A stretch of DNA of 20,000 nt, from NCBI GenBank assembly GCA_046331705.1, contig JAXLQJ010000034.1, forward strand, positions 61,612 to 81,611, read 5' to 3'. Below the pieces are notes generated by a model, which saw nothing but the letters and a program-made list of their open reading frames with translations, was not told the origin of the DNA and did no database searches. A program made the translations under genes and the position numbers. This stretch comes from a bacterium (GTDB lineage Bacteria; JADJOY01). The stretch's first letter is position 1. Every line of letters starts with the position of its first letter. Positions 128-20,000 of this stretch are shown one piece after another.

Positions 128-140
128 CGGGCTCGAATCG

Positions 141-2329: not shown

Positions 2330-2433
2330 AAGGGCCACCGTGACCTGGCGATCCGCGGCCGCTCCGATGTCGACCGCGAAACGCCACCGACCGTGATCGA
2401 TCCCCCGACCCCGACTGCTTGCGAGAGGTACCG

Positions 2434-4800
2434 ATGACCGAGCTCGACGAAGAGATCGTCAACGAGTTCCTGGTCGAAAGCTACGAGAACCTCGATCAGC
2501 TCGATCGAGACTTCATCGAGCTCGAGAAGGACCCGCGCAATCGCGAGATGCTCGCGCGGATCTTCCGCACCATCCACACCATCAAGGGCACCTCCGGGTT
2601 CCTGGGGCTCGAGAAGCTGCAGAAGGTCACCCACGTGGGCGAGAGCCTGCTCTCGCGCCTGCGGGATGGCGTGCTGCTCCTCGACCCCGAGATCACGACC
2701 GCGCTGCTGCGCATGGTCGATGCCGTGCGCCAGATCCTGGCGTGCATCGAGGCGGCCAAGAGCGAGGGCGACGTCGACTACGGGAGCCTGATCGCCGATC
2801 TCAACCGCCTGCAAGATCCCACGCAGCGCAGCGCGCCCACGGCCGCCGCGCCCGTTGCGGAGCAGGCGGCCCAGCCGGCGGCCGCGCCCGCGCCGCCGCC
2901 GAAGCCCGTGAGCGCACCGGCGGCCGCCGCTCCCCAGATCGCGAGCCCCGCAGCCACGCCGGCGCCGACGATCGCACCACCGCTCGCCGCGACGCCGACG
3001 CCCAGCACGCCGGCAGCAGCGCCCACTCCCTTCGCCACCGCTTCTCCCGCCGCGCCGGTGCCGCCGGCGCCCGGGACGAGCGCGCCCGCGAGTGACGGCG
3101 CGGAGACGAAGTCGGCGGCGCCAGGCGTATCGGAGAGCTCGATCCGTGTCGACGTGGGGATCCTCGACAAGCTCATGAACCTGGTCGGCGAGCTGGTCCT
3201 GGCGCGCAACCAGGTCCTCCAGCTCAGCACCAGCACCGCGGACTCGTCGTTCCAGGCCTCCACCCAGCGCCTCAATCTCATCACCACCGAGCTGCAAGAG
3301 AGCGTCATGAAGACGCGCATGCAGCCCATCGGGAACGTGTGGAGCAAGTTCCCGCGGGTGGTGCGCGACCTCGCCGTGATGTGCGGCAAGAAGGTGCGCG
3401 TCGAGATGGACGGCCAGGAGACCGAGCTCGACAAGACGATCCTGGAAGCGATCAAGGATCCGCTCACCCACGTGATCCGCAACTCGGTGGACCACGGCAT
3501 CGAGAGCAGCGAGACCCGCGTCGCCGCGGGCAAGCCCGCCGAGGGCTTGCTGTCGATGCGCGCCTACCACGAGGGCGGCCAGGTCATCATCGAGATCGCC
3601 GACGACGGCGGCGGCATCGATCCCGAGCGGGTACGCGCCAAGGCGATCGCGCGCGGCTTGATCACCGCCGAGCAAGGGGCGCGCCTCGGCGACCGCGAAG
3701 CCGTGAACCTCGTCTTCCTGCCCGGCTTCTCCACGGCCGAGAAGGTCACCAACGTCTCCGGGCGCGGTGTCGGCATGGACGTGGTGCGCACCAACATCGA
3801 GAAGATCGGCGGCACCGTCGACGTCCAGAGTCAGCTCGGACGCGGCACCACCATTCGCATCAAGATCCCGCTCACGCTCGCCATCATTCCGGCGCTGATC
3901 GTCACCGCCGGCGGCGACCGCTACGCGATCCCGCAAGTCAGCCTCCTCGAGCTGGTGCGGCTCTCGGGCGATCAAGCGATCCAGAAGATCGAGCGCATTC
4001 GCGGCGCGCCGGTCTACCGGCTGCGCGGCAACCTGTTGCCGCTGGTCGACCTGAGCCAGGAGCTCGGCCTGGTTTCCGCGAGTCGCGCCGACGTACCTGC
4101 CGATCCGACCAACCTGGTGGTGCTGCAGGCCGGGGACCGGACGTTCGGCCTGGTGGTCGAGAGCATCGGCGACACCGCGGAAATCGTGGTGAAGCCCCTC
4201 GGCAAGCAGCTCAAGGGCATCGATTGCTTCGCCGGAGCGACCATCATGGGCGACGGCACGGTGGCGCTGATCCTCGACGTCGTCGGCATCGCGCAGCGCG
4301 CCAAGATCCTGGGCGCCTCCGGCGAGCGCTCGCTGGTCGACACCGCGGACGCGGCGGTCGCCGCGAGCGAGGACGTCCAGACCTTCCTCCTCTTGGGTCT
4401 CGGCGAGCACGATCGGCTGGCGCTGCCGCTCTCGCTGGTGGCGCGGCTCGAAGAGGTGCCGGCGAGCTCGGTCGAGCGCGCGGGCGGCCACGAGGTGGTC
4501 CAGTACCGCGGCGAGATCCTGCCGCTCGTCCACCTGAGCCAGCACTTCGCCACCGACTCTCCCACCAACGATCCGCTGCAAGTGGTCGTCTACACCGAGC
4601 GTGGCGCGTCGGTGGGCGTGGTCGTCGACCAGATCGTCGACATCGTCGAGGAGCGCGTGACGATGCAACGCACGGCGGCTCGTCCGGGCTTGCTCGGCTC
4701 CGCCGTCATCCAGGGCCGCGTGACCGATCTCGTGGATCTCGCGAGCATCGTGCGCGCCGCCGACCCGACGTTCCTCGAAGGGCACGCCGAGGCCGCCTGA
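2434..4800 (+). CDS. cheA: Chemotaxis histidine kinase CheA (HPt - Pro/Ala linker - dimerisation - HATPase - two CheW-like domains)
   Basis: IFRTIHTIKGTSGFL (P1 His), IRVDVGILDKLMNLVGELVLARN, HVIRNSVDHGIE, DDGGGID, FLPGFSTAEKVTNVSGRGVGMDVV, IPLTLAI. RBS GAGAGG precedes ATG 2434. Confidence 0.97.
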   Translation: MTELDEEIVNEFLVESYENLDQLDRDFIELEKDPRNREMLARIFRTIHTIKGTSGFLGLEKLQKVTHVGESLLSRLRDGVLLLDPEITTALLRMVDAVRQILACIEAAKSEGDVDYGSLIADLNRLQDPTQRSAPTAAAPVAEQAAQPAAAPAPPPKPVSAPAAAAPQIASPAATPAPTIAPPLAATPTPSTPAAAPTPFATASPAAPVPPAPGTSAPASDGAETKSAAPGVSESSIRVDVGILDKLMNLVGELVLARNQVLQLSTSTADSSFQASTQRLNLITTELQESVMKTRMQPIGNVWSKFPRVVRDLAVMCGKKVRVEMDGQETELDKTILEAIKDPLTHVIRNSVDHGIESSETRVAAGKPAEGLLSMRAYHEGGQVIIEIADDGGGIDPERVRAKAIARGLITAEQGARLGDREAVNLVFLPGFSTAEKVTNVSGRGVGMDVVRTNIEKIGGTVDVQSQLGRGTTIRIKIPLTLAIIPALIVTAGGDRYAIPQVSLLELVRLSGDQAIQKIERIRGAPVYRLRGNLLPLVDLSQELGLVSASRADVPADPTNLVVLQAGDRTFGLVVESIGDTAEIVVKPLGKQLKGIDCFAGATIMGDGTVALILDVVGIAQRAKILGASGERSLVDTADAAVAASEDVQTFLLLGLGEHDRLALPLSLVARLEEVPASSVERAGGHEVVQYRGEILPLVHLSQHFATDSPTNDPLQVVVYTERGASVGVVVDQIVDIVEERVTMQRTAARPGLLGSAVIQGRVTDLVDLASIVRAADPTFLEGHAEAA

Positions 4801-4843
4801 CCCGGCAATCCGCGACGCCAGGTCGACCGAGAAGGAGACAACG

Positions 4844-5287
4844 ATGGGGAGCACCCACGCGTTCTGCACGTTCTGCGTCGACGACCACTTCTTCGGAGTC
4901 GAGGTCGAGAAGGTCCAAGAGGTGATCCGTCACCAGCCGATGACGCGCGTCCCGCTCGCGCCGGTGGTGGTGCGCGGCCTCATCAACCTGCGCGGCCAGA
5001 TCGTGACCGCGCTCGATCTCCGGCGCCGGCTCGGCTTGCCGGAGGCGAGCGTCGACCGACCGCCCGCCAACGTCGTCGTGCGCAGCGAGGACGGGGCCGT
5101 GAGCTTGCTGGTGGACGAGATCGGCGACGTCCTCGAGATCGACGAGGAGCATCGCGAAGCGCCGCCGAACACGGTCGACAGCCTGGGTCGGGACCTCATC
5201 CAGGCGGTCTACAAGCTCGATGGCCGCTTGCTGCTGATCCTCGACACCGAACGCGCCACGCGCGTGCACGGCGACGAGCGCTGCTGA
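4844..5287 (+). CDS. cheW: Chemotaxis coupling protein CheW
   Basis: [64 protein letters not shown]. Confidence 0.96.
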
Positions 5288-5360
5288 CGCCGGGCACGCG
5301 GCAACGAGCCTCCACGGACGCCCCCTCGAACGGCGCGGTCAACGCGCAAAGGTCCTTCGC

Positions 5361-7472
5361 ATGGCCCACCGACTCCACCTGAAAAGCGTCCAGACCAAGC
5401 TCCTGGTCAGCTTCCTCGCACTGACCTTCGGCGCGATGGCGCTGGTCACCGCCCTCGCCTATCAGCGCAGCTCCGCGGCGCTCGCCGCTGCGGCCGGCAC
5501 GACCCTCGAGAGCGAAGCGACGCGGGCGCTGGAGACGATCGACCGCAACCTGGACAACCGAGTCCGGGACCTCAAGGCCACCGTGCGACGCAACGCCGCG
5601 CGCGGCGCGCCCGAGGTCGTCACGGCGGCGGCCAACGATCTGGTCCGCACGTACGGCTTCTACGATCTCATCGTGGTAGCCGATGTCGACGGGAACGTGA
5701 TCGCGACCAACACCGTCGACGCCGAAGGCCGCCCCTTGCGCGCGCAGTTCACCAATCGAAACGTCAAGGGCGAGACCTGGTTCCAAGCCGTCGTCGGCGG
5801 GTCGCTCGGGCGGGACCAGATCTACACCAGCGACGTCGTGAACGATCCGTGGGTCGCGGAGATCGCCAACGGCGAGGAGCAGGCCCTGAACATGGCGGCG
5901 GCCGTGCGCGACGAGAACGGCGCCGTCATCCGTGCCTGGTCGAATCGGCTGGCGTTCGATCGGCTCGGTCGCGCGGTCATGGACGACACGCGAAAGGACC
6001 TCGCGCAGCGCGGCATGAAGACGGTCGAGACCCAGCTCCTCTCCAAGGCGGGCCTCGTGCTCGACGACGCCGACCCCGCGGCGGAGATGAAGCTCAATCT
6101 GGTGGATGTGGGCCTGGCCGCAGCCAAGGCTGGGACCGAGGGAAAGAGCGGCTACGTCACCGAGGTCCACAAGCGCACCGGGAAGCTGCAAGTGAACGGC
6201 TACGCCGCCGAGAAGGGCTGGGCCCAATACCCGGGTCTCGGATGGAGCGCGCTGGTGCGTCAGGACGTCTCGGAGGCCGCAGCGGCGGCGACGGGGATCC
6301 GCAACTACATGATCCTGATCGCTCTCGCCGCGCTCGCGGTGGTCGTCGTCGCGGCCGTGGTGATCGCGCGCGGCATCGCCCGCCCGCTCGTGGCGACCGC
6401 CGACGTCCTCGAGAGCCTCGCGGACGGCGAGCTGCGCCGCCACGTCGCGGTGGACTCGACGGACGAGGTGGGACGCATGGGAACGGCGCTCAATCGCGCG
6501 ATGGACTCGATGCGCGACGCGCTGGGCGGCATCGCCGGCGCCGCGACCGGGCTCGCCAGCTCCTCCGAGGAGCTCACCTCGGTCAGCCGCCAGATGACCT
6601 CGAGCGCCGAGGAGACGGCATCGCAAGCGGGTGTGGTGTCGGCGGCGGCGGAACAGGTGAACGGCAACATCGGCAGCGTGGCGGCGTCGGTGGAAGAGAT
6701 GACGGCCTGCGTTCGCGAGATCGCCAAGAACGCGCAGGAAGCAGCGCGCGTGGCCTCGCAGGCCGTGGACATCGCCCAAGGCACCTCCACCACGATCCAC
6801 AAGCTCGGCGATTCCAGCAACGAGATCGGCAACGTCCTCAAGGTCATCACCTCGATCGCCGAGCAGACGAACCTGCTCGCCCTCAACGCCACCATCGAGG
6901 CGGCGCGCGCCGGTGAGTCGGGAAAGGGCTTCGCGGTGGTCGCCAACGAGGTGAAGGAGCTCGCCAAGGAGACCGCCAAGGCCACCGAGGACATCGGGCG
7001 CAAGATCGAGGCGATCCAGGACGACACCCGGGGCGCCATCCAGGCGATCACCGAGATCACCGAGGTGATCCACCAGATCAACGTGATCTCCACCACCATC
7101 GCCGGTGCCGTCGAGGAGCAAAGCGCCACGACCAACGAGATCGCTCGCAACGTGAGTGAAGCGGCGCGCGGCAGCGTCGAGATCACCCGCAACATCACCA
7201 GCGTCGCGCAGAGCGCCGGCGACACCACCGCGGGTGCCACGCAGACCCAGCTCGCCGCCTCCGAGCTCGCGCAGATGGCGTCGGATCTCACGCAGCTCCT
7301 GTCGCGCTTCCAATGGCAAGGCAGCGGCAACACCATGGGCGTGCCCAGCGTCGCGGCGCGCGCCCTCGCACCACTGCAACCGGCCGCGCCGCCGCCGCGG
7401 ACGAATCCGTCCAGCGGCGCATCGAACGGCAACGGTCATGCGCATGCGGGCAGCTACGTCTTCCATGCGTGA
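5361..7472 (+). CDS. Methyl-accepting chemotaxis protein (TM - Cache-like sensor - TM - HAMP - 38H signalling domain)
   Basis: Two hydrophobic helices, HAMP (IARPL...[11 protein letters not shown]) and hairpin tip [37 protein letters not shown]. Manual count gives 19 heptads per arm versus 18 in E. coli Tsr. Confidence 0.96.
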
Positions 7473-7537
7473 CGCGAGAGGGACGCGCGGGCGACCGCCC
7501 GTCCCGAGCGCAACTTCACGCTCGTGAGGTGAACGCC

Positions 7538-7909
7538 GTGAAAGCGATCGTCGTCGACGATTCCAAGGCCATGCGGATGATCCTGGCGCGCAGCCTGCGC
7601 GCACTCGGGTTCGACGTGGAGGAGGCGGGCGACGGGCGCCAAGCGCTCGACAAGCTCGCGACCATCGACGCGCCCGACCTGGCGCTGGTGGACTGGAACA
7701 TGCCGGAGATGAACGGTCTCGAGCTGGTGCGCGCGATGCGGGCCGAGTCGCGGCTCGCGGCGATGCGCGTGATGATGGTCACCACCGAGACCGAGATCAG
7801 TCACGTGACCCAGGCGCTCGAATCGGGTGCCGACGAGTACGTGATGAAGCCATTCACCGCCGACGCGATCCGCGAAAAGCTGGCGCTGCTCGGCTTCTCG
7901 CTGGGATGA
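7538..7909 (+). CDS. cheY: Single-domain response regulator CheY (first copy)
   Basis: GTG start after GAGGTG RBS. KAIVVDDS, LVDWNMPEMNG (phospho-Asp), MVTTE, YVMKPF. The N-terminal 75 aa of the track ORF (7313) overlap the MCP and are spurious. Confidence 0.93.
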   Translation: MKAIVVDDSKAMRMILARSLRALGFDVEEAGDGRQALDKLATIDAPDLALVDWNMPEMNGLELVRAMRAESRLAAMRVMMVTTETEISHVTQALESGADEYVMKPFTADAIREKLALLGFSLG

Positions 7910-9081
7910 CCATGGCCAAGATCCGGGTCCTGGTCGTCGACGATTCGGTGGTGGTGCGCCGGCTCGTCACCGACGCGCTGTCACGCGATCCGATGATCGA
8001 GATCGCGGGGGTGGCCGCCAACGGCCGCATCGCGCTCGCCAAGATCGCCGAGGTGAGCCCGGACATCGTGACGCTCGACGTCGAGATGCCCGAGATGGAC
8101 GGGCTCGCCACGCTGGTCGAGATCCGCAAGACGCGCCCCAAGCTGCCGGTGATCATGTTCAGCACGCTCACCGAGCGCGGTGGGGTGACGACACTGGAAG
8201 CCCTCGCCCGCGGGGCCAGCGACTACGTCACCAAGCCCTCGAACGTGGGCAGTGTGAACGAGGCGCTGGAACGACTGCGCGCCGAGATGCTGCCCAAGAT
8301 CAAGGCGCTCTGCGGCCGCTCCGCGGATGCTCCACCGGGGATGGCACGTCCCGCCCTCGGCCGTGCGGCAGCGCCCGGCGCGCCACCCGCCGCGCCGGGA
8401 GCCGCGCCGAGCCGCATCGCGCCGCGCCCCAGTGCCGCACCTCCGCCGCCGCGCACCCGATCCGGCCCTCCTGCACGAGTCGAGGTGGTCGCGATCGGCG
8501 TCTCGACGGGCGGCCCGAATGCGCTGGCGGTGGTGATCTCGAGGCTTCCAGGCGATCTGCCGGTGCCGATCCTGATCGTCCAGCACATGCCGCCGCTCTT
8601 CACGAAGCTCTTGGCGGAGCGCCTCGACTCGGGCTCGCGCTTGACGGTGCGCGAGGCCTTCGACGGCGCGCGCCCCACGCCAGGCTCCGTGTGGGTCGCG
8701 CCCGGCGATCACCACATGCTCGTGGCGCGGGAGGGTGGCGCGGTGGCGCTGCGCCTCAACCAGGCTCCCGCCGAGAACTCGTGCCGGCCGGCGGTCGATC
8801 CCCTCTTCCGCTCGGTCGTCGAGGTCTACGGCGCTCACGCGCTCGGGGTGGTGCTCACGGGCATGGGTCGCGACGGCTTGCTCGGCGCGCGCGCGCTGGT
8901 GGCCGCCGGTTCGCGCATCATCGCCCAGGACGAGGCGAGCTCGGTGGTGTGGGGCATGCCCGGCTACGTGGCGAGCGAAGGGCTCGCCGAGCGAGTGCTG
9001 CCCATCGGAGACGTGCCCGGCGAGATCGAGCGCCGGGTGACGGAGTCGCGCGGCCTTCGGCCCGCGCGGGCGATCGCGTGA
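7906..9081 (+). CDS. cheB: Chemoreceptor methylesterase CheB (REC + methylesterase)
   Basis: REC VLVVDDS/TLDVEMP/TKP. Catalytic S-H-D in GVSTGGP, IVQHMP and LTGMGRDG. ATGA overlap with the cheY stop (alternative start 7912). Confidence 0.97.
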   Translation: MTMAKIRVLVVDDSVVVRRLVTDALSRDPMIEIAGVAANGRIALAKIAEVSPDIVTLDVEMPEMDGLATLVEIRKTRPKLPVIMFSTLTERGGVTTLEALARGASDYVTKPSNVGSVNEALERLRAEMLPKIKALCGRSADAPPGMARPALGRAAAPGAPPAAPGAAPSRIAPRPSAAPPPPRTRSGPPARVEVVAIGVSTGGPNALAVVISRLPGDLPVPILIVQHMPPLFTKLLAERLDSGSRLTVREAFDGARPTPGSVWVAPGDHHMLVAREGGAVALRLNQAPAENSCRPAVDPLFRSVVEVYGAHALGVVLTGMGRDGLLGARALVAAGSRIIAQDEASSVVWGMPGYVASEGLAERVLPIGDVPGEIERRVTESRGLRPARAIA

Positions 9082-9094
9082 CGCGGAGCCGTAC

Positions 9095-9922
9095 ATGAGC
9101 CTCGCCGCCAACGACTTCGATTATCTCTGCAAGTTCCTCTACGAGCGCTCGGCGATCGTGCTGCAGCCCGGCAAGGAGTACCTCGCCGAGTCGCGGCTCA
9201 TCCCGCTCGCCAAGCAGGAGGGCTTGGGGGGGCTCGCTTCGCTGGTCGCCTCGCTGCGATCCGGCCAGGCGAACGGCCTCGCCCAGCGGGTGGTCGACGC
9301 GATGACCACCAACGAGACGTCCTTCTACCGCGACACCGGCCCCTTCGAGGCGCTCCGGACCCACGTCCTGCCGGCGCTCGTCAAGGTCGCCGAGCGCGAG
9401 CGCGCGCTGCGGATCTGGTCGGCGGCGTCGTCCACCGGCCAAGAGATCTACAGCACCGCGATGCTCATCCGGGACCATTTCCCGCAGCTCACCGGCTGGA
9501 ACCTGCAGCTCCTGGCCACCGACTTGTCGCGTGACGTGCTCGCGCGCGCCCGGGAGGGCCGCTACAACCAGCTCGAGGTGAACCGTGGCCTGCCCGCGCC
9601 GATGCTCGTGCGCCATTTCGAGCGGCACGGCCTGGACTGGCAGCTCAAGGCCGACATCCGGCGCATGGTGGAGTTCCGCGAGCTCAACCTCGCCGCGTCG
9701 TGGCCCTCGCTGGGCAGCTTCGACCTGGTCTTCCTGCGCAACGTCCTCATCTACTTCGACGTCGAGACCAAGCGACGGATCCTGGGCCGCGTGCGCCAGG
9801 TGCTGAAGCCGCACGGCTACCTCTTCCTCGGCGCCGCCGAGACCACGCTGATGCTCGACGACGGCTTCGAGCGCGTGATGTTCGACAAGACCACCGCGTA
9901 CCGGCTGCGCGGGACTCGTTGA
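9095..9922 (+). CDS. cheR: Chemoreceptor methyltransferase CheR
   Basis: MTTNETSFYRD, RIWSAASSTGQEIYS, ATDLS, FDLVFLRNVLIYFD, GYLFLGAAET. Confidence 0.97.
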   Translation: MSLAANDFDYLCKFLYERSAIVLQPGKEYLAESRLIPLAKQEGLGGLASLVASLRSGQANGLAQRVVDAMTTNETSFYRDTGPFEALRTHVLPALVKVAERERALRIWSAASSTGQEIYSTAMLIRDHFPQLTGWNLQLLATDLSRDVLARAREGRYNQLEVNRGLPAPMLVRHFERHGLDWQLKADIRRMVEFRELNLAASWPSLGSFDLVFLRNVLIYFDVETKRRILGRVRQVLKPHGYLFLGAAETTLMLDDGFERVMFDKTTAYRLRGTR

Positions 9923-10073
9923 GAGACGCACGGAGATGTCCCCTCGCGCAGCTGCACCGATCGCTCGCCATGCCCGAGGCAGGCGTGCGCCGACCACGAG
10001 CCGCCCACAGGCGGCCCCACCTCGCCTGGCACGCACGCGACCACCGACACCAGGCTAGAGAGGAGACGCTTCA

Positions 10074-10535
10074 ATGCAGGTCGACGAATCCACGCTGTTC
10101 GAGCTCACCGAGCAGGTCTGGACCTCGATGCTCGGCCTCAACCTCGTCATGGGCAACGGTCATCCGCCCGCGGCCGCGAAGACGCGGCACCTCGTGGGCT
10201 GCGTCGTCATCAGCGGCACGTGGGAAGGCGCGGTGTCGATCGAATGCCCGCTCACCGTCGCGAAACGCGCTGCCGGGATCATGTTCGGCACCGATCCTGC
10301 CGATGCATCCGATGACGAGGTGCGCGACGCCCTGGGCGAGCTCGCGAACATGATCGGCGGCGGCGTGAAATCGCTGCTGCCGGCGCCCAGCCAGCTCTCG
10401 CTGCCGACGGTGGCCGAGGGCGAGTCGCTGGTGCTCTCGGTACCGGGTACCCACGAGGTTCGGCACGTGAGCTTCGCCTGCGAGGGCGAGCCGTGCCGGG
10501 TCGTGATCGCCGCGAAGGAAAACGGCGCGGCGTGA
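10074..10535 (+). CDS. cheX: CheX-family CheY-P phosphatase
   Basis: GCVVISGTWEGAVSI and DALGELANMIGG (E-x-x-N active motif), QLSLPTV. RBS GAGAGGAG. Confidence 0.9.
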   Translation: MQVDESTLFELTEQVWTSMLGLNLVMGNGHPPAAAKTRHLVGCVVISGTWEGAVSIECPLTVAKRAAGIMFGTDPADASDDEVRDALGELANMIGGGVKSLLPAPSQLSLPTVAEGESLVLSVPGTHEVRHVSFACEGEPCRVVIAAKENGAA

Positions 10536-10587
10536 TTTCCGCTGGACGAACCGTGCCGAGCCCGACCTCGGCGGGGAGGACGCGACG

Positions 10588-10947
10588 ATGAAGATCCTGG
10601 TAGTGGACGACAGCAAGGCGATGCGCATGATCGTGATGCGAACCTTGCGGCAGGCCGGCTTCGACGGACACACGATCAGCGAAGCCACCAACGGCGCCGA
10701 AGCGTTGGAAGCCATCAAGAGCGCGGCGCCCGACCTCGTCCTGTCGGATTGGAACATGCCGGAGATGAACGGACTTCAGCTGCTGCAAGAGCTCAAGAAG
10801 CAGGGCTCCCCGGTGAAGTTCGGATTCGTGACCTCGGAGGGCTCGGCCGAGATGCGCCAGCAAGCGACCGAGAACGGCGCCCTCTTCCTGGTCTCGAAGC
10901 CCTTCACCGTGGAAGCGTTCCAGACCGCTCTCGACGGCGTGATCTGA
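10588..10947 (+). CDS. cheY: Single-domain response regulator CheY (second copy)
   Basis: KILVVDDS, VLSDWNMPEMNG, FVTSE, LVSKPF. RBS GGGAGG. Confidence 0.92.
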   Translation: MKILVVDDSKAMRMIVMRTLRQAGFDGHTISEATNGAEALEAIKSAAPDLVLSDWNMPEMNGLQLLQELKKQGSPVKFGFVTSEGSAEMRQQATENGALFLVSKPFTVEAFQTALDGVI

Positions 10948-10950
10948 GCC

Positions 10951-11040
10951 GGCGGATCCGCGCGGAGCCGCGGGGCGCGGCGCTCGCGAGGGGGACGACC
11001 CGCCTCGGATCGGCGGCGGAATCCCGCTGGGGATCCAGCC
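10951..11040. terminator. GC-rich imperfect hairpin between the convergent che operon and EBP gene
   Basis: Outer GGC-GGATCC / GGATCC-AGCC and inner CGAGG-GGG-ACGA-CCC-G-CCTCG (10987-11007). No U-tract on either strand. Confidence 0.3.
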
Positions 11041-11043
11041 TCG

Positions 11044-12411
11044 CTATCGCTTCGGTCGGCCGGAGCCGCGCGCGGGCGCCAACCCGAACTGCTTCATCTT
11101 CTGGTAGAGCGTGCTGCGCGCGATCCCGAGTCGTGCTGCGGCACGCTCCACGTTGCCACGCTCCGCTTCCACCACGCGCACCAGGTGGCGCATCTCCACG
11201 TCGGCGAGCGTGAGCGACAGATCGCCGGTGCGGTCGCGCGGCGAGGGCGCGACGTCGAAACGCACCGCGCTCGCGTCGACCGTGCGTCCGTTCGAGTAGA
11301 GCACCGCGCGCTCCAGCACGTTGCGCAGCTCGCGGATGTTCCCCGGCCAGTGGTAGCTCGTCAGCCGCCGCAACGCGGCTGGCGTGAGCTCGATGCCGGG
11401 CCGTCCCAGCTCGGCGGCGAGGATGCCCAGGATGTGCACCGCGAGCACGCCGAGGTCCTCGCCACGCTCGCGCAGCGACGGCATGCGCAACGGCAGCGCG
11501 CTGATCCGGAAGTAGAAGTCGCTGCGGAAGCGCCTGTCGCGGACCCGCGCCGCCAGGTCGACGTGGGTGGCGGCGAAGAGCCGCACGTCCACCTGCCGCT
11601 CGCGCACGTCGCCCAAGCGACGGAAGCGCTTGTTCTCGATGGCCTTGAGGAGCTTCGCCTGCACTTCCAGGTCGAGGTCGCCGACCTCGTCCAGGAAGAG
11701 CGTGCCGCGATCGGCCACCTCGAAGAGCCCGGACTTGGGGGCCACGGCACCCGTGAAAGCGCCCCGCTCGTGGCCGAAGAGCTCGCTCTCCAGCAGCTCC
11801 CGGGACAGCCCCGCGCAGTTGAGGTCCACGAACGGCTCGTCGCGGCGCGCGCTGTTGACGTGAAGCCACTGGGCGAGCGTTCCCTTGCCGCTGCCGGTCT
11901 CGCCGAGGACGAGGATGGGGCTGTCGCTCGCCAGCAAACGGTGGGCGTCCTCGGCGAGCTGGCGAATGCAGGTGCTCGCGCCGAGGAACGGATCGATCGC
12001 TCGCTGCGCGCCCACCTCCGCCGCACGCGTGCGACGCCGATCGCGGCGAGCAGCCACCAGCCGCTCGATCAGCGCCGCGAGCGATCCCAGCGCCACCGGC
12101 TTGGTCATGAAATGGTCGGCGCCCTGCTGGATGGCGCGCACCGCCAGGTCGATGGTGGCGTGGCCCGTCATGACGACCACCGGCAGCGCAGGATCGGTCT
12201 CGCGCAGCGCCACCAGCAGGTCGAGCGCGTTGCCGTCGGGCAGCATGTAGTCGATCGTCGCGGCGTCCGGCCGCCAGGTGGCCTGGAGCTCGCGCGCCGC
12301 GCCGCAGCTCGCGGCCTCCAGCACCTCGAAGCCGCGCGCGGCGAGGTATTGAGCGACGATGCCGCGCACCGACGGTTCGTCGTCGACGACCAGGATGCGC
12401 GTCACGGGCAT
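11044..12411 (-). CDS. sigma54-dependent enhancer-binding response regulator (NtrC family: REC - AAA+ - Fis HTH)
   Basis: REC ILVVDDE/TIDYMLPD/MTKP. Walker A GETGSGK, intact GAFTGA, Walker B TLFLDE, WPGNIRELRN, HTH GNVERAAARLGIARSTLYQKM. Confidence 0.96.
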   Translation of the reverse strand: MPVTRILVVDDEPSVRGIVAQYLAARGFEVLEAASCGAARELQATWRPDAATIDYMLPDGNALDLLVALRETDPALPVVVMTGHATIDLAVRAIQQGADHFMTKPVALGSLAALIERLVAARRDRRRTRAAEVGAQRAIDPFLGASTCIRQLAEDAHRLLASDSPILVLGETGSGKGTLAQWLHVNSARRDEPFVDLNCAGLSRELLESELFGHERGAFTGAVAPKSGLFEVADRGTLFLDEVGDLDLEVQAKLLKAIENKRFRRLGDVRERQVDVRLFAATHVDLAARVRDRRFRSDFYFRISALPLRMPSLRERGEDLGVLAVHILGILAAELGRPGIELTPAALRRLTSYHWPGNIRELRNVLERAVLYSNGRTVDASAVRFDVAPSPRDRTGDLSLTLADVEMRHLVRVVEAERGNVERAAARLGIARSTLYQKMKQFGLAPARGSGRPKR

Positions 12412-12446
12412 GCGTTAGCGACTCGGCGCCGCAGCGCGCGCATCGC

Positions 12447-13700
12447 TCAGAAAGGGGCGATTCGGATGACCAAGCATGCGTTCGTTCCGCCGAAACCGAA
12501 CGAGTTCTTGAGCAACACCTCCGCGCGAACGGCGCGCGCGCCATCCGCAACGTAGTCGAGATCGCACTCCGGATCGGGTTGCGTCAAGTTCGTCGTGGGC
12601 AGCGCCCTACCCCGCCGCCCGGCCGCCAGCGCGAGCACCGTTTCGATCGCGCCCGCGGCACCGTACGCGTGCCCGTGCATCGATTTCGTGGCGCTCACGG
12701 GCACCTCGTAGGCCCGCTCTCCCAGCACCGACTTGAGCGCGCGCGTCTCGGCGAGATCGCCGTGCGGCGTGGAGGCCGCGTGCGCGCTCACCACGTCCAC
12801 CTCCGACGGCGCCACGTCGGCTGCGGCGAGCGCCATGCGCATGGTGCGCGCCCAATCGCTGCCATCGGGCCGCGGATGGTAGACGTGGTACGCGTCGTTG
12901 GTCTGGGCATCGCCGAGCAGCTCGGCGTGGATGCGGGCGCCGCGCGCGCGGGCGTGGTCGCGATCCTCGAGCACCACGATGCCAGCGCCCTCGGCCATCA
13001 CCAGTCCGGCGCGATCGCGCGCGAACGGCCGCGACGCGCGCTCGGGCTCGGCCGTGGGATTGATCGCGCGGGCGTTGCCCATGCTGCCGAGCAAGACCAG
13101 GCCGATGCACGACTCGGCACCGCCCGCGAGCGCGACGTCCGCGCGCCCCGCGCGAATGAGATCGGCAGCCACGGTGATGGACGTGGCACCGGCGGCGCAC
13201 GCGTTCACGATGCCGTAGTTCGGGCCGCGCAGGCCGTGCTCGAGCGCGACCAGCGCCGACGGCATGTTGCCGGAGATGTTGAGGCTCACGCGCCCGGGCA
13301 GCTCGTGCGCCTTGCGCTCCACGAACGCGGCGTGAAGCGCACGGTGGTACGTGTGACTGCCCGGTGCCGCGACTCCCAGCACCACCGCTGCGCGGTCGCG
13401 CAGCTCGGCGTCGCCGAGATCGAGCGCGGCATCGGCGATCGCCTCCGCCGCGGCCGCCAGCGCGTAGACGATGGCGGGATCGTACGAGCTCGCGTACGCA
13501 GCCGGCACGAAGTGCCTGGCGTCGAGCCCTTCGACCGTCCCCGCGACCCGCGCGGGGATGGACGCGCCGAACTCATCCCACAGGTAGCGCTCGCAGCGCC
13601 GGATGCCCGACGCTCCCGCGAGCGCGCTGGCCAGCGACTCGGCGACCGTGTTGCCGAGCGGGGAGACCAGCCCGAGCCCGGTGATGACCACGTGTTTCAT
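12447..13700 (-). CDS. fabF: Beta-ketoacyl-ACP synthase II-like ketosynthase (FabF family)
   Basis: VVITGLGLVSPLG, catalytic Cys (NACAAG), His (SAHAAST), His (TKSMHGHAYGAAG), C-terminal NSFGFGGTN. Confidence 0.9.
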   Translation of the reverse strand: MKHVVITGLGLVSPLGNTVAESLASALAGASGIRRCERYLWDEFGASIPARVAGTVEGLDARHFVPAAYASSYDPAIVYALAAAAEAIADAALDLGDAELRDRAAVVLGVAAPGSHTYHRALHAAFVERKAHELPGRVSLNISGNMPSALVALEHGLRGPNYGIVNACAAGATSITVAADLIRAGRADVALAGGAESCIGLVLLGSMGNARAINPTAEPERASRPFARDRAGLVMAEGAGIVVLEDRDHARARGARIHAELLGDAQTNDAYHVYHPRPDGSDWARTMRMALAAADVAPSEVDVVSAHAASTPHGDLAETRALKSVLGERAYEVPVSATKSMHGHAYGAAGAIETVLALAAGRRGRALPTTNLTQPDPECDLDYVADGARAVRAEVLLKNSFGFGGTNACLVIRIAPF

Positions 13701-13808
13701 GCGGCATGCTCCGTCTCCCCCCGATCGTCGACCTCGATGTCTCCACCGCCGCGCGCCGGGCCGTTCGGCCCACCTTCGGACACGCGGAGGGTGCTGGCTC
13801 CGGCGCGG

Positions 13809-14972
13809 TCATGCGCGCGGCTGCGCGCTCGGTGCCGGTGCGTTCGTGACCAGCGGCAAGCGGATGCGGAACGTCGTCCCGACCCCCAGCGTGCTCGCGC
13901 ATTCGATCGTGCCGCCGTGGGCGCGCACGATCATCCTGCAGATCTCGAGACCGAGGCCGCTGCCGCTGGGCCGCGTCGTGTAGAAGGCGTCGAACACGCG
14001 TTCGATCTCGTCCGCCGGGATGCCGCGCCCCGTGTCGCGCACCTCGAGCACCGCTTGTCCGTCCTGGGCGCGGCACGCGACCACGATCTCGCCGCCCTCC
14101 GCCGTGGCCTCGGAGGAGTTCTGCACCAGGTTCCACAGCACGCGCCGAAAACGGCGCGGCGCGATGGCGCAGCACACCGGCCCGGCAAGCTCCTGACCCA
14201 GCTTGAACTTCTGATTGATGGTGCTGCGCCGAAGCTCGGCGGTGAACTGGCCGACCAGCTCGGTGAGGTCCGTGACGGCGACGTGGTATTGCGGCACGCG
14301 CCCTTGCGCCATGCACATGAGCTCGCTGGCCAGATCCTGGATGCCCTGGACGCCCTCCTCGAAGAGCGGATTCACCAGGTCCGGCGCGCCGCCGAGGGAC
14401 GAGAGCTCCGCGGCGCCGAGCAGCGCCGTCAGGTAATTGCGGATGTCGTGGGCGATCCCGGCGGCGAGCTTGCCGGCGAGCGCCAGCTTCTCGGTCTGCG
14501 ACAAGCGCTCGCGCGCTTGCTCGAGCTCGCGGTTGCGCGCCGTGAGGTCCCGCACGAGCTGGCGATTCTCGAGCGTGAGCCGGCGCGTCTCGAGCGTCTC
14601 GACGATCGCCATGCGCAGCACCATCGGATCGCACGGCTTGATCAGGAAGCGCTCGACCTGCCCCTCGTTGATGGCGCGCAACATCGCGTCGGCGTCGAGG
14701 AACGCGGTGAGCAGGATCCGGCCCACGTCCGGCTGGTTGGCGCGCATCCACGCGAACAGATCGGTGCCACGCATGCGCGGCATGCGCTCGTCGGCGACCA
14801 CCAGATGGAAGGGCTCGGCGGCCAACAGCGCCTGCGCCTCGGCGCCGTCGCGGGCGGTGCGGACGTCGTATTGCCGCTTCAAGAGGAGCTGCATCGTGTC
14901 GCGCAGCTGCGCTTCGTCATCGACCACCAGGACCTTGGGGCGCTCGACGTTGCTGGGACGATCGTTTTCCAT
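13809..14972 (-). CDS. Cytoplasmic REC - HisKA - HATPase hybrid kinase
   Basis: KVLVVDDE, VVADERMP, LLTAF, LIKP. H-box GIAHDIRN, N-box NLVQNS, DTGRGI, FYTT, GSGLGL. ATG 14972 is preceded by GAGGAG; the track start at 15038 overlaps the upstream gene. Confidence 0.93.
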   Translation of the reverse strand: MENDRPSNVERPKVLVVDDEAQLRDTMQLLLKRQYDVRTARDGAEAQALLAAEPFHLVVADERMPRMRGTDLFAWMRANQPDVGRILLTAFLDADAMLRAINEGQVERFLIKPCDPMVLRMAIVETLETRRLTLENRQLVRDLTARNRELEQARERLSQTEKLALAGKLAAGIAHDIRNYLTALLGAAELSSLGGAPDLVNPLFEEGVQGIQDLASELMCMAQGRVPQYHVAVTDLTELVGQFTAELRRSTINQKFKLGQELAGPVCCAIAPRRFRRVLWNLVQNSSEATAEGGEIVVACRAQDGQAVLEVRDTGRGIPADEIERVFDAFYTTRPSGSGLGLEICRMIVRAHGGTIECASTLGVGTTFRIRLPLVTNAPAPSAQPRA

Positions 14973-15006
14973 GTCGCCGCTGGTCTCCTCGAAAGCAGGG
15001 GACGTC

Positions 15007-17673
15007 TCAGGCCGCCGCTTCCCCGACCTCGGTGTCACTCGCCGCGGCCTTCGCCTCGGGCGGACCCGCGATCGGCAATCGCACCGTCACCTTCGTGCCC
15101 TCGCCCTCGACGCTCGTCAAGCCCACGTGGCCGCCGTGCTCCTCGACGATCTGGCGGGTGAGCGCCAGGCCGAGGCCCGTCCCCTCGCCCGGCGAGCGCG
15201 TGGTGAAGAACGGATCGAAGACGCGGTCGATCTGCGCGCCGGGAATGCCGCAGCCGTTGTCCTCGATCGAGATCTCCAGCTCGTCGGCGGTGCGCCGGGT
15301 CGTCACCCACAGCCGCCCCGCTCCCTCGGGCATCGCCAGGAGCGCGTTCTTGACGAGGTTGAGCAAGACCTGGTTCACGCGACCGATCTGGCAGCGCACC
15401 GAGGCATCCGCGCACAGGTCCTGGATCACCTCGACGTTCGGGTTCGCCAACGCGCCCGTGAGCAGCAAGGTCGAGGTCAAAGCCTGATTCAGGTCGGCGA
15501 GCTCGGGAGCGATCTCGTGCCCGGGACGCGCGATGGCGCGCAGGTACTCGACCACGCTGCGAATGCGGTCGACGCCCGTGCGCGACGCGTCGAGCAGCCG
15601 ACGACAGGTCTCCGCGGGCGAGTCCGGTCCGGTGCCGCCGCCGTCAGGGGTCGCGGCGAGCAACTCTTCGATGACCTCGCGCAGCGCGAACAGCGAGTTG
15701 GCGATGAATCCCAGCGGGTTCAGGATCTCGTGCGCCATTCCACCGGTGAGCAACATCATCGACGCACCGGTCTCTCGCTGCAGCTCGTCCACTCGCTCCT
15801 CCTTGCGCTTGAGCAGCGAACGCACCGCCGCTCGGAGCTCCTTCACGCTGAACGGTTTGATCAGAAAGATGTCGGCGCCGCTCTCGCGGGCCGTGGTGCG
15901 ATCGTCCGCTTGCCCACGCGCGGTCAGCATGACGATCGGCGTCGCCCGCGTGTCGGGATCGCGGCGCAGCTCGCGGCTCAACCACGGCCCATCGCGTCCG
16001 GGCATCATCCAATCGGTGATGACCAGGTTCGGCCGGTGCTCGCGGGCGCGCGCGAGACCTTCCTCGCCGTCACCGGCGGCGATCACGCGGTACTCGGCGG
16101 AGAGCTGCAGGGTGATGAAGCGCAGCAGCTCGACCGAGTCCTCGACCACCAGCACCGTCGCCGCGCGCGGCGGCGCCTCGAGGCGCGGCACGGTGCGGCG
16201 ATCGGCGGCGTCGTGAAGCTCGCCGACGCGGTATTCCGGCTGCTCGGTGACCCGACGGACCCAATCCCCGAGCCCGTGATCCTCGGCGCGCCGCGCCGGT
16301 GACGCGCCGCGCTCCGCGTGGCGCCGGTCGAGACGCTCGGCGGCGATGCCGCTCACGTCGCGCGGCAAGCTCACGTCGAAGGTCGAGCCCTTGCCGACCT
16401 CGCTCGAGACCGCGACTCGGCCACCGTGCAGCTCGACCAGCTCCTTCACCAGCGCGAGCCCGATGCCGGTGCCGCCTCGCGAGCGCGTGGCGCTCGGGTC
16501 CACCTGGCTGAAGCGATCGAAGATCCGCTGGTGCTCGCTCGCGGGGATCCCGATCCCCGAGTCCGTCACCGCGATGCGCAGCTCCGCCGGGTGCTCCTCG
16601 AGGCGCACCCGAATCGAGCCGCCGGCGGGCGTGAACTTGATGGCGTTGGACACGAGATTCAGCACGATCTTCTCGACCTTGGACGCGTCCAGGCGCGCCA
16701 GCACCGGCCGCTCGGGCGCGTCGAGGCGAAGCGTGAGCCCACGCCAGGCGGCCATCGGCCCGGCTTGCGTGGTGATGCTCTTCAGGAGCTCGGTCAGGTC
16801 GCAGACCTCGAGGCGCACCCGCGCCTGCGAAGCCTCGAGGCGCGCCAGGTCGAGGAGATCGTTGATGAGCCGAAGCAGTCCCAGACCGTTGCGCCGGATG
16901 ACGTCCAGGTACTCGATCTCGTGCGCGTCGCGGGCGGCCCGGTTGGACTCCGCGAGGCTTTCCAGCGCCCCCAGCATCAAGGTCAGCGGCGTGCGCATCT
17001 CGTGCGACGCGTTCGCCATGAAGGTGGTCTTCATCTGATCGAGGGCGCGCAGCTTGTCGAGCGCCGCCGCCAGCTCGTGCCGGCCCTCGAACTCGGCGAG
17101 CGCGAGACGCGCGCGTTGCGCGTTCGCCGCGATCGAGATGCCGAGGCCACCGAGGATGAAGAAGGTGTTGTTGAGCGCGGCGCGCCAGCGCACCATCGAG
17201 TCGAGCGACGCGACGCCGAGGTACATCGCCGCCATGCCGACTCCCACCACCGACGCCGTTCGCCAGCCCCACGGCATGATGAGGCCGGCGGCGAGCATCG
17301 TCACGATGAGACCCGCGTAGTAGAGGCTGTCGCCGTAGCCGGTGTAGGTGAGCATCACGCAGATGATGGCGCTCACCCACAGCACCGCGATCGCGCTCAC
17401 CACCACCAACGCCTCCATCGACCGCGGCCGGCGCGCCCACGCGATGATCGGCAGGTACGCGACGGCGCAGAGCACGCGCAGTCTCAGAAAATCGTGCACC
17501 ACCCCCGGAAACTGCGACGGCGGATAGACCACCCAATCCACCGCCCAGAACAGCAGGAAGATGACGATCGCCACCAGCGAGAAGAGCCGCACTCCGCGGC
17601 GCAGCGTCTCGCGGACCTCTTCGTCCCACGCCGCGCGAATCTCCGGATCGGCTGTCGCTCGGGAGCGTTTCAT
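15007..17673 (-). CDS. Membrane hybrid sensor kinase: 6 TM - HisKA/HATPase - REC - second HisKA/HATPase (888 aa)
   Basis: ATG 17673 overlaps the upstream TGA (ATGA). Six hydrophobic segments. H-box 1 NASHEMRTPLT, NLVSNAIKF, DSGIGI, GTGIGL. REC VVEDS/ITDWMMP/LTARG/IKPF. H-box 2 GMAHEILNPL, NLVKNA, DNGCGI, FDPFFTT, GTGLGL. Confidence 0.9.
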   Translation of the reverse strand: MKRSRATADPEIRAAWDEEVRETLRRGVRLFSLVAIVIFLLFWAVDWVVYPPSQFPGVVHDFLRLRVLCAVAYLPIIAWARRPRSMEALVVVSAIAVLWVSAIICVMLTYTGYGDSLYYAGLIVTMLAAGLIMPWGWRTASVVGVGMAAMYLGVASLDSMVRWRAALNNTFFILGGLGISIAANAQRARLALAEFEGRHELAAALDKLRALDQMKTTFMANASHEMRTPLTLMLGALESLAESNRAARDAHEIEYLDVIRRNGLGLLRLINDLLDLARLEASQARVRLEVCDLTELLKSITTQAGPMAAWRGLTLRLDAPERPVLARLDASKVEKIVLNLVSNAIKFTPAGGSIRVRLEEHPAELRIAVTDSGIGIPASEHQRIFDRFSQVDPSATRSRGGTGIGLALVKELVELHGGRVAVSSEVGKGSTFDVSLPRDVSGIAAERLDRRHAERGASPARRAEDHGLGDWVRRVTEQPEYRVGELHDAADRRTVPRLEAPPRAATVLVVEDSVELLRFITLQLSAEYRVIAAGDGEEGLARAREHRPNLVITDWMMPGRDGPWLSRELRRDPDTRATPIVMLTARGQADDRTTARESGADIFLIKPFSVKELRAAVRSLLKRKEERVDELQRETGASMMLLTGGMAHEILNPLGFIANSLFALREVIEELLAATPDGGGTGPDSPAETCRRLLDASRTGVDRIRSVVEYLRAIARPGHEIAPELADLNQALTSTLLLTGALANPNVEVIQDLCADASVRCQIGRVNQVLLNLVKNALLAMPEGAGRLWVTTRRTADELEISIEDNGCGIPGAQIDRVFDPFFTTRSPGEGTGLGLALTRQIVEEHGGHVGLTSVEGEGTKVTVRLPIAGPPEAKAAASDTEVGEAAA

Positions 17674-20000
17674 CCGACCCGTTTCGCCACCACCAGCACG
17701 GCCCGCGGCGGCATGCCGAACGTGTGCTCGACTCGTTCCACCTCGAAGCCCGCCTCGACGAAGAGCCGGCGAAGCGCGTCCGCCTCGTAGAAGCGGAACG
17801 TGCCCTCGTCGGCCAGGCGCAGCAGCCAGGCCGCCGAGCTCATGTATTCGCGCGCGCCGCGCAAGGGCGCCCGCCGTGGTGCCCTCGGGAGGCGCGACCA
17901 CGCCCGCGGCGATGTCCTCGATGAACCGCGTGTACACGCCGGAGAGGTCGGCGTCGGGACGGATGGACGAGGCCACCACGCAGGCACCTTCCGGAAGCAC
18001 GGCGTGGAGCCGGCGCAGGAATCCGAGCGCGTCGGGCAAGCACGAGAGGAAGAGGCTCATGAGCACGGCGCGCGCCGCGTGCAGGCTCGCGGGCGGCGGC
18101 TCGCACGCGGCATCCCACTCCTCCGCCGTGAACGGCACGCCGAGCGCGGCGGCGCGCCGCGCCGCTTGCTCGAGCACCTGCGGCACGAGATCGTAGGCGA
18201 TCACGCCGCGCGGGCGGCGCGGCAGGCGCGCCAGGAACGGGATCGAGTGGCCCATGCCGCCGCCGACGTCGTGGACCCAATCGTCGTCGCCGATCGCGAG
18301 CAGCTCGACCTGCCGCTGCATGAGCTCCCGGTACTCGCGGGTGGCGGCCAGCACGTCGAAGCCGAGGCTGCCGCCTTCCTCGCCCAGCATGTAGCCGCGC
18401 CAGTAGTCACGCGGCGAGGCGAGCTGGCTGCGCGGCGCCGCCGCCCATTCGGCCGCGGTCACGCGCTCGGCTTGCTCGCGCGTCGGCACGGCGATCACCG
18501 GGTCCAACACGTCGACCGCCGCCAGCAGATGGCGGATCACCGGCACGAACGAGATCACCGCCTCGGTGCTCTTGGTGGGGATGTGACCGCACGGGACGGT
18601 GACGAGCTTGCGCTCCACGGTGGGGGCGCAATCGAGGATGCTGCGGATGCGGTTCACGTTGACGAAGGCGTCGTAGACGCCGTGCACCCACAGGATCGGC
18701 ACGGTGAGCTTGGCGGCATCGGCCTGCGCGTCCTGGAGGAAGACCAGGCGGTGGCGGATGCCGTCGGCGCTCCAGCGATCGGTGTCGGCCAGCAGCCCGA
18801 GCACGTTCTGGACGTCGCCGTGGATCCCGGCGCGGTGCTTGGCCACGTAGTCGATGCCGCCCGACGCCATGCGCACCAGATCCTGGATGTCGGACGCACC
18901 CATCAGCTCGACCAACGTCGTGACGCGCAGCTCCTCGACGGCGGCGCGCAAGCAGAGCGGGCCCGAGAAGCTCATGCCGACCAGCGCGGTCGCCCGCGGC
19001 GGCGTCGCGAGCTTGTGGTGCGCGAAATCCACCGCCGCGCGCACGTCCTCGACGCAGGCCGAGAACGTGAGCCCGAGGGTCTCCTTGCCCGGCTCGCGGA
19101 ACTCGGGGTCCTTGTCGCTCTCGCCGAGGGCATTCGAGTAATCGAGTCGCAGCACGGCGAGATGACGCAAGTTGGCGTCGAACGACGCCGCCAGCACTTG
19201 CGCCAGGAGCGACGTCGATTCCTTGGTCTTCGCCCACGCGGGCGGGATCACCACCACGCTCGCCGGCCCGGGGTGCTCGACCTCGGTCCAGAGCCCCACG
19301 AGCTTGCGAGAGCCGGCGCGAAACTCGACACGGTCCGCGGCATAGGGCCGGATCGCCTCGCGCGGCGCCAGATCGGTGCCGGGATAGTCCTCCTCGATGG
19401 TGAGGCGAGCGTCCGCCACCGGGCGCGCCGCTCCTCCCTCGAGGAACGTGACGCCGACGGTGAACCCACCCCACGGCTGCGCCCGGTGATGCCGCACCGC
19501 CACCCGCTCGTGGCCGATGCAGCCGTCGCCGAAATCCAGATCGACGTCCAGGATCTTACCGACCTCGTGCTCCGGGCGAAGCTCGCGCTCGAAGTACGAG
19601 AAGCCGCGCGGCGAGACGTCGAAGATCGGCAAGGTCCGGCCCTCGATGACCACCGAGAGCGTGGAGTCGAGATCCAGCGCGAGCCGATCCTGCGCGCGCT
19701 GATCGGTGGCCGCGCACAGCGCGGGCAGCGAGAGCCGCGCCTCGTGCGACTCGAAGCCGAGAAGGTAGCCGTCCATCGAGAAGCTCTCGTGCCTGGCGAA
19801 CGTCGAATAGCACAGATAGTCCCCGGGCGCACCCAGCGCATGGGGGTTTTCGAGCGCCACGCGCAGATGGCGGCGCCCGGCGTCGTAGCCGATCGCCCGC
19901 GCCGTCACCGCACGCCCCGCGTACATGCGCGCGAACGTGAGCGGCGCCTGCTCGGCGACCAGCGACTCGAGCATCGCGGCGATCTGTGCCGGATCCACGA
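17670..20000 (-). CDS. Multidomain enzyme: YcgR-like/PilZ - LuxD-like alpha/beta acyl-thioesterase - class I SAM methyltransferase (probably 5'-partial; frameshift near 17865)
   Basis: PilZ RxxxR (RAQDR) and DxSxxG (DVSPRG). Hydrolase elbow VGMSFSG (Ser codon 18970-72), HGVYDAFV, PCGH. MTase motif I HDVGGGMG, acidic IAYDL, LRRLHAVLPEGACVV. The natural-looking C-terminus is in the alternative frame ending at TGA 17670. Confidence 0.8.

Follow-up and report, generated by a model that had tools for sequence, protein, structure and literature searches.

We analyzed a 20,000-nt stretch of a bacterial genome, referred to here as the window (assembly GCA_046331705.1, contig JAXLQJ010000034.1; G000:C34:61612-81611), whose 3' edge coincides exactly with the end of the contig. 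Positions 11044-20000 contain five consecutive genes. In order of transcription they encode an enzyme combining PilZ, alpha/beta-hydrolase and S-adenosylmethionine (SAM) methyltransferase domains, a hybrid double histidine kinase, a REC-histidine kinase (REC-HK), a FabF-like beta-ketoacyl synthase (KS) and an NtrC-family sigma54 enhancer-binding response regulator (EBP). The G+C content of the window is about 70%, and a frame plot of G+C at the third codon position (GC3) was used to choose among the many open frames. The plot and the list of open reading frames (ORFs) placed all coding signal of this region on the minus strand. The genes are closely packed, with an ATGA overlap of the enzyme and kinase genes at 17670-17673 (the enzyme stop codon TGA at 17670-17672 overlaps the kinase ATG) and gaps of 34 nt (14973-15006), 108 nt (13701-13808) and 35 nt (12412-12446) between the genes that follow. 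An earlier note on this DNA had described the five genes, their common orientation, the overlap and the gaps, all of which were borne out by the ORF list, the frame plot and Pfam. The features are listed in Table 1.

Table 1 Coordinates of the genes, domains and sequence elements of the five-gene cluster.
Feature	Position in window	Strand	Basis or remark
PilZ + alpha/beta-hydrolase + SAM methyltransferase enzyme gene, 5'-truncated	17670 to beyond 20000	-	Pfam, tblastn
PilZ-type region retained, second PilZ module of the family	19399-19998	-	motifs; weak VCA0042 profile match
Alpha/beta-hydrolase domain	18514-19344	-	Ser in GMSFSG (codon 18970-18972), Asp of HGxxDAFV, His of CGH
Class I SAM methyltransferase domain	17670-18501	-	motif I VHDVGGGMGH at 18247-18276; frameshift inside
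Frameshift site in enzyme	17865-17871	-	7 nt in the window, 9 nt in homologues
Hybrid double histidine kinase, 888 aa	15007-17673	-	Pfam HisKA x2, HATPase_c x2, one REC
MASE-like sensor of hybrid kinase, about six transmembrane helices	17104-17601	-	hydropathy
HisKA/HATPase module 1 of hybrid kinase	16360-17034	-	
REC domain of hybrid kinase	15820-16155	-	
NtrB/AtoS-like kinase module 2 of hybrid kinase	15064-15786	-	
REC-HK, 387 aa	13809-14972	-	Pfam REC + HisKA/HATPase
Weak sigma54-type -24/-12 element, GGCAC...GCA	13822-13837	-	3 mismatches; about 122 nt 5' of KS start; lead only
FabF-like KS paralogue, 417 aa	12447-13700	-	Pfam ketoacyl-synt N and C domains
NtrC-family sigma54 EBP, 455 aa	11044-12411	-	Pfam REC, Sigma54_activat, HTH_8

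The enzyme is a fusion of PilZ, alpha/beta-hydrolase and class I SAM methyltransferase. Pfam matched the window copy with Methyltransf_25/12/11 and, weakly, with Hydrolase_4/Peptidase_S15; Hydrolase_4 was matched in 18 of 25 aligned family members. Both catalytic domains were modelled with high confidence. The hydrolase model (predicted local distance difference test score 95.6) and the invariance of S125, D225 and H254 in 40 sequences indicate an alpha/beta-hydrolase fold with a Ser-Asp-His triad, and the nearest folds include monoacylglycerol lipases and lipases. The methyltransferase domain has a Rossmann-type fold, the DxGxGxG SAM motif and an acidic residue after strand 2. Its fold neighbours were unspecific, and the fold search did not discriminate the type of methyl acceptor. 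A sequence-profile search of the PDB with the enzyme returned generic methyltransferases and one weak lipase.

The PilZ motifs of the window enzyme, RxxxR and DxSxxG, were located at 19591-19707. All sequences of the 25-sequence alignment have R344, R348 and G375, and at least 90% of them have D370 and S372; in the 40-sequence alignment, which takes in a more distant subfamily of about 830 aa, conservation of the motifs is again at least 90%. Pfam PilZ (PF07238) was found in 23 of the 25 homologues (38.7 bits in P0001 and 27.1 bits in P0004, against a cut-off of 22.5). These hits cover the first PilZ module, which is cut off in the window, and the window fragment had no PilZ Pfam match at E <= 0.01. 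The retained PilZ region matched the VCA0042 (3kyg) profile weakly (E 0.003). RxxxR, DxSxxG, the hydrolase Ser, Asp and His, and the methyltransferase DxGxGxG and second Asp were invariant or nearly so in both alignments. Judged from these residues, the enzyme family is coherent, with PilZ motifs, catalytic triad and SAM motif kept across the 40 sequences.

The alignment of the window copy with the 1023-aa homologues P0001 and P0002 starts at their residue 248 and shows 73% identity, so about 247 N-terminal residues have been removed by the contig end; the missing 5' end of the gene was not found elsewhere in the assembly. In tblastn, the frame in which homologues aligned ended at 17872, and a different one took over at 17864. 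Because the enzyme changes frame between these positions, the 1663-codon ORF at 15007-19998 is a read-through artefact. We compared positions 17300-18400 with near-identical contigs from four activated-sludge or wastewater sequencing runs of three studies (X1, X2, X4 and X6). The contigs of all four runs, one of which may be the source sample so that the comparison is not fully independent, have two extra bases and one substitution at 17865-17871 and are free of the frameshift. With these changes the enzyme becomes a single 776-codon frame with the same stop, which aligns with P0001 over 774 residues with one gap. Probably, then, the frameshift arose in the assembly, or it is at most specific to a strain.

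In a word-indexed search, 5.8 billion proteins yielded only 31 relatives of the enzyme, mostly of 880-1130 aa and with precomputed Pfam PilZ and methyltransferase matches, to which the sources gave vague names ("methyltransferase", "lysophospholipase", "UbiE/pimeloyl-ACP methyl ester carboxylesterase"). When 1.84 billion representatives were searched in full with a HMMER profile, 552 representative clusters, mostly of 800-1200 aa, were obtained at E <= 1e-30. Neighbours in the ESM Atlas were hydrolase-methyltransferase fusion clusters, some with PF02273 and PilZ, labelled Myxococcota, Nitrospirota, Verrucomicrobiota and Omnitrophota. The phylum of the window is represented by six species genomes in the collection searched, and five of them have the enzyme. 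A word-based search for short stand-alone forms returned four fragments and no named protein, a scan of genome contigs with P0004 alone gave at least two close loci, and tblastn of P0004 against 72,556 plasmids gave no match.

We then analyzed the genes around the enzyme. Scanning metagenomes with the enzyme alignment identified 80 loci, 28 of which have at least 3 kb of DNA downstream of the enzyme and were taken as informative; these 28 are all distinct at 70% identity. In 24 of them, a homologue of the entire kinase, from the transmembrane region through the second kinase module, was found on the same strand within 4.5 kb downstream, and in L057 the kinase adjoins the enzyme on the opposite strand. 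When loci with at least 1.5 kb downstream were considered, 32 of 42 have the kinase; in six more, the enzyme is followed by an MMPL transporter gene, and the downstream DNA of 1.9-2.9 kb, in which no homologue of the kinase was found, is too short for the kinase to be judged. The earlier note had named a lack of synteny between the enzyme and the kinases among the findings that would refute its proposal. The pairing holds, in the 24 informative loci as well as in a paralogous cluster on contig C1 of the same genome (G000) and in both clusters of a sister genus.

MMPL genes lie directly downstream of the enzyme in 13 of the 28 informative loci. The linkage of enzyme and kinase is strong, and that of enzyme and MMPL is frequent. 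Pfam annotation of 154 ORFs from 22 loci revealed genes for fatty-acid desaturase, CMAS, AurF-like protein, acyl-CoA dehydrogenase and acyl-AMP ligase near the enzyme in relatives. This lipid context, with MMPL exporters and lipid genes close by, is in keeping with the lipid chemistry put forward in the earlier note. In the clade of about 830 aa, the gene order is a Trans_reg_C + AAA_16 regulator, an AAA-kinase + deaminase fusion, the enzyme, MMPL, a double hybrid kinase, a REC-GAF-kinase and a protein of about 215-235 aa without a Pfam match. Several of these neighbours recur. The regulator, of about 1000 aa, was observed in 22 of the 80 loci. The fusion, of about 335 aa, joins a P-loop kinase-like domain (AAA_17/18/33) to a cytidine/dCMP deaminase and precedes the enzyme in 17 of the 53 loci with at least 1.5 kb upstream (for example L016, L045, L071, L073 and L083). 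The Pfam-less protein, which ends the operon, has a signal-peptide- or lipoprotein-like N-terminus (L032, 16255-16899; also L060, L071, L073 and L083).

The paralogous cluster on C1 consists of an intact 1019-aa enzyme (P0004, 53% identical to that of the window), a kinase (54%), a REC-HK (54%) and a divergently adjacent KS (69%), with no EBP alongside. It is flanked in L005 (G000:C1:62001-81000) by a fused CofG/CofH-like FO synthase of 827 aa (14660-17143, minus strand) and, on the other side, by a 1098-aa protein (2442-5738, minus strand) that looks radical-SAM/SPASM-like by eye only. The sister genus has both cluster types. Its orthologue of the window cluster is arranged as EBP, a small REC-only regulator, enzyme, kinase, REC-HK and KS, and the EBP upstream of the enzyme is 50.5% identical to that of the window. 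The EBP link has therefore been kept in the sister genus although the gene has moved. In L100 (G001:C397) the small REC-only response regulator lies at about 5320-5700, between EBP and enzyme, and is preceded by a sigma54-type element with 2 mismatches at 5247-5262; the corresponding region of the window lies past the contig end. The KS was found next to the enzyme in five different arrangements (the window, C1, L010, L011 and L012).

The KS of the cluster is distinct from the housekeeping enzyme. It scored 407.2 bits on the FabF equivalog model TIGR03150, below the cut-off of 493.75, and the housekeeping FabF on contig C37 scored 576.2 bits. The four other cluster KSs that were scanned, with the sister-genus copy left out, were also under the cut-off (415, 392, 367 and 328 bits). 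Identity is 41-70% among the cluster KSs and 35-42% between them and FabF. The fold is a full-length ketoacyl synthase fold, as in FabF, and Cys168, His307 and His344 of the window KS align with the catalytic Cys-His-His of FabF, which is retained in all cluster KSs. On this sequence evidence the cluster KS is a dedicated, catalytically intact paralogue.

The EBP is of the NtrC type, with Pfam matches to Sigma54_activat (205 bits), Response_reg (79.5) and HTH_8 (45.1) and a GAFTGA motif in the AAA+ domain. Sigma54-type elements with at most 2 mismatches were as frequent in the window as expected (5 observed, 5.67 expected). In the sister genus (L101), a 2-mismatch element was found at the place equivalent to the weak element listed in Table 1. 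Elements with 2 mismatches were present in three of five gene-upstream regions examined in relatives (L100, L101 and L006, not L005 or L099) and are likewise to be taken as leads only. A scan of 10500-20000 for terminators and sigma70 promoters returned nothing.

The hybrid kinase has five hydrophobic stretches before residue 190, one of them long enough for two helices, and we read its N-terminus as about six transmembrane helices on the basis of this hydropathy scan. The sensor is purely polytopic membrane, without a periplasmic domain. Atlas leads to a sensor family for this region were mixed (MASE2/6/7/8/11 and 6TM_PilS); four of the ten best family-bearing hits agreed, and no family was assigned. 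Over 399 aa the REC-HK has 30% identity to the REC and kinase 2 region of the hybrid kinase, whose C-terminal half is by this similarity its paralogue. Like the REC-HK, kinase module 2 is similar to kinases of the AtoS, ZraS and NtrB type, whose partners are regulators of the NtrC type.

The rest of the window is largely taken up by a complete chemosensory cluster on the plus strand (CheA, CheW, methyl-accepting chemotaxis protein (MCP), REC protein, CheB, CheR, CheX and CheY; 2419-10947), which converges on the operon. A good sigma54-type -24/-12 element, GGCACG-N4-TTGC, with 2 mismatches to the 16-mer lies at 2314-2329 (plus strand), about 90 nt 5' of cheA. Given this element, the Che operon may be sigma54-dependent. 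The 198-aa REC ORF (7313-7909, plus strand) and the 3' end of the MCP gene, whose last position is 7472, have about 160 nt in common; since the REC domain begins only at residue 79, the true start is probably later. The Che cluster is preceded by a LysM + M23 peptidase gene (3-980, plus strand), 5'-open at the window start, and by an HDOD/HD-domain protein gene (1123-2103, minus strand). The genome itself, that of an uncultured wastewater bacterium, comprises 8.2 Mb in 118 contigs and abounds in sigma54 activators (48 tblastn pieces) and histidine kinases (108 tblastn pieces). DNA nearly identical to it was found in metagenomes of activated sludge, wastewater and digesters that come from 12 studies.

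We compared the cluster with known systems by gene order and description. The closest in layout is the Phc system of Ralstonia (phcB-phcS-phcR(-phcQ)), in which a gene for a SAM-dependent enzyme is likewise followed by those for a membrane kinase and a REC + kinase-like protein; the Phc-like gene logic put forward in the earlier note was thus matched in gene order. The Phc signals are methyl 3-hydroxymyristate or 3-hydroxypalmitate, and the phospho-His of PhcS is at residue 230, which leaves an N-terminal sensor of about 200 aa, similar to that of the hybrid kinase here (on Phc: PMC11960443, PMC8578825, PMC6989110, PMC11298618). From the mutation coordinates in Table 1 of PMC6989110, PhcB comes to about 470 aa by arithmetic. 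Because it has only about 470 aa on this estimate, PhcB cannot have the three-part architecture of the enzyme described here, which has 820-1020 aa. No PhcB-named model was among the five NCBIfam hits listed. The hybrid kinase also differs from PhcS in its extra REC and second kinase module, and the output is a sigma54 EBP here but PhcA in Phc.

Other systems share single features with the cluster. Vibrio CqsA/CqsS and Xanthomonas RpfF/RpfC have a fatty-acyl-derived signal synthase encoded beside a polytopic hybrid sensor kinase, an arrangement that, by description, resembles the one here. CqsA is a pyridoxal phosphate-dependent aminotransferase-like enzyme and RpfF a crotonase, whereas the enzyme here is a hydrolase and methyltransferase. 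LuxD (PDB 1THT; PF02273, Acyl_transf_2) is an alpha/beta-hydrolase with a small cap and a Ser-Asp-His triad, like the hydrolase domain, and PF02273 is carried by some of the Atlas neighbour clusters mentioned above; the hydrolase here is, however, fused to PilZ and methyltransferase domains. The PilZ effectors YcgR, PlzD/VCA0042 and BcsA share the RxxxR and D/NxSxxG motifs with the enzyme, in line with the Pfam PilZ matches of the homologues and the weak VCA0042 profile match, but the output domain here is a hydrolase-methyltransferase pair. Full-text searches of one literature library, judged from their listings, found no paper that appears to describe such a PilZ output, the PilZ-hydrolase-methyltransferase or its kinase partner. 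The earlier note did not recognise the combination as a characterised system.

These results suggest, tentatively and at somewhat less than even chances, that the operon encodes a cyclic di-GMP (c-di-GMP)-gated maker of a lipid methyl-ester or similar signal together with a cognate intramembrane sensor relay, following a Phc-like logic. The dedicated KS would supply a particular acyl or 3-oxoacyl thioester. The fusion enzyme would take the acyl group on its catalytic Ser, and its methyltransferase domain would methylate the released product, giving a hydrophobic methylated lipid, for example a fatty-acid methyl ester; both the substrate and the methyl acceptor are putative. The enzyme is probably gated by c-di-GMP, because PilZ modules with intact binding motifs precede the catalytic domains. 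The product could be exported by the MMPL transporter that is encoded directly after the enzyme in relatives; the clusters of G000 are without it. The membrane-only kinase may detect the product inside the membrane, or else respond to its effect there. In the relay that we envisage, kinase 1 would pass phosphate to the REC domains (its own and that of the REC-HK), these would control the NtrB-like modules, and the sigma54 activator would finally be phosphorylated.

Several observations weigh against this signalling proposal. The adjacency of enzyme and kinase fits equally well a kinase that regulates the enzyme, with no signal role. The substrate, product and ligand of the module are putative, and so is O-methylation of a carboxylate. 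The kinase-linkage count is dominated by one large clade, since the 28 loci collapse at 50% single linkage into 7 groups, 3 of which have the kinase. In L010, L011 and L012, where the KS adjoins the enzyme, no kinase was found nearby. Neither cluster of G000 has an MMPL gene beside it, no sigma54 promoter with at most 2 mismatches was found within the cluster or its intergenic DNA in the window, and the window copy of the enzyme, as assembled, is truncated and frameshifted. The scheme of the earlier note, in which neither the PilZ module nor the truncation of the enzyme appears, is supported in part and has to be amended for the probable c-di-GMP gating through PilZ, for MMPL in relatives and for a KS and EBP that are lineage-specific. 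Its dedicated FabF is indeed a catalytically intact paralogue distinct from the housekeeping FabF, but it lies outside the widely conserved core, with a KS near the enzyme in 3 of 80 loci. The EBP is NtrC-type and its link is kept in the sister genus, but it too is lineage-specific (4 of 80 loci). The linkage to KS and sigma54 activator is limited to the sub-lineage of the window, namely the C1 paralogous cluster, the sister genus and three metagenome loci. The LuxD-like domain holds at the level of the fold and the triad, but PF02273 was unmatched in the window enzyme and in all 25 family members (E <= 0.01), and in the ranking by Z LuxD did not come out as the closest fold of the hydrolase domain.

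The main rival is remodelling of envelope lipids, in which the kinase senses the state of the membrane (fluidity, packing or stress) and the enzyme, helped by the KS here and by MMPL elsewhere, makes and places a methylated or deacylated lipid that is structural, an end product and no signal. We regard this as possible, if on the unlikely side. Relatives have MMPL, desaturase and CMAS genes near the enzyme, which is typical of the adaptation of membrane lipids, the sensor lies wholly within the membrane and is MASE-like with no ligand family assigned, and the nearest hydrolase folds are partly those of lipases. The tight, near-universal same-direction pairing of enzyme and kinase and the multi-kinase relay, however, exceed what is usual for the regulation of a single enzyme, and PilZ gating suggests an activity that can be switched and is not homeostatic; neither argument settles the matter. 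A further alternative is an adaptation system resembling CheR/CheB, in which methyl groups would be added to and removed from the kinase or a partner by the fusion, in a c-di-GMP-tuned manner. A methyltransferase fused to a Ser-His-Asp esterase beside a sensor kinase formally resembles CheR plus CheB, and a Che cluster adjoins the operon in the window, but Che genes are not beside the orthologous sister-genus cluster within the DNA examined, the hydrolase fold is of the lipase/esterase/thioesterase type and not that of CheB, and the MMPL, KS and desaturase neighbours point to lipids. We consider this explanation improbable.

A scarcely more probable alternative is a masked-carboxylate route like that of BioC and BioH, with the methyltransferase capping a malonyl-thioester, the KS and fatty-acid synthase extending it, and the hydrolase demethylating the product to a dicarboxylate or unusual acid. 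Methyltransferase, alpha/beta-hydrolase and FabF-like KS are the enzyme set of BioC/BioH-dependent pimelate synthesis, and one source labels relatives "UbiE / pimeloyl-ACP methyl ester carboxylesterase". The match to the BioC model TIGR02072 is nevertheless weak (19.6 bits against a cut-off of 184.95) and no BioH model was matched; the scarcity of the KS means that it is absent from most of the family, and the linkage to MMPL and kinase would be left unexplained. It is very improbable that the genes are unrelated neighbours and the window enzyme a dead pseudogene. The truncation and frameshift of the assembled gene would be accounted for, but it is the contig end that truncates the gene, none of the four runs compared has the frameshift, and the synteny has been kept in many lineages.

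We place the module, conserved and so far uncharacterised, among the variants of one theme, that of a putative lipid-signal enzyme encoded beside its membrane kinase. More speculatively, and we hold this as a possibility that is on balance doubtful, the PilZ-gated enzyme may make a diffusible methylated lipid as c-di-GMP rises, which MMPL would export and the double kinase would read back; the module would then couple c-di-GMP to cell-to-cell (quorum or autocrine) signalling and represent a widespread unrecognised system. Few enzyme outputs of c-di-GMP are known, as are few lipid-ester signals beyond Ralstonia Phc. Through synteny, the module ties second-messenger state, lipid chemistry and two-component signalling together, often with a lipid exporter in between. 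The family is sizeable and unannotated, and naming its product would annotate many environmental genomes at once.

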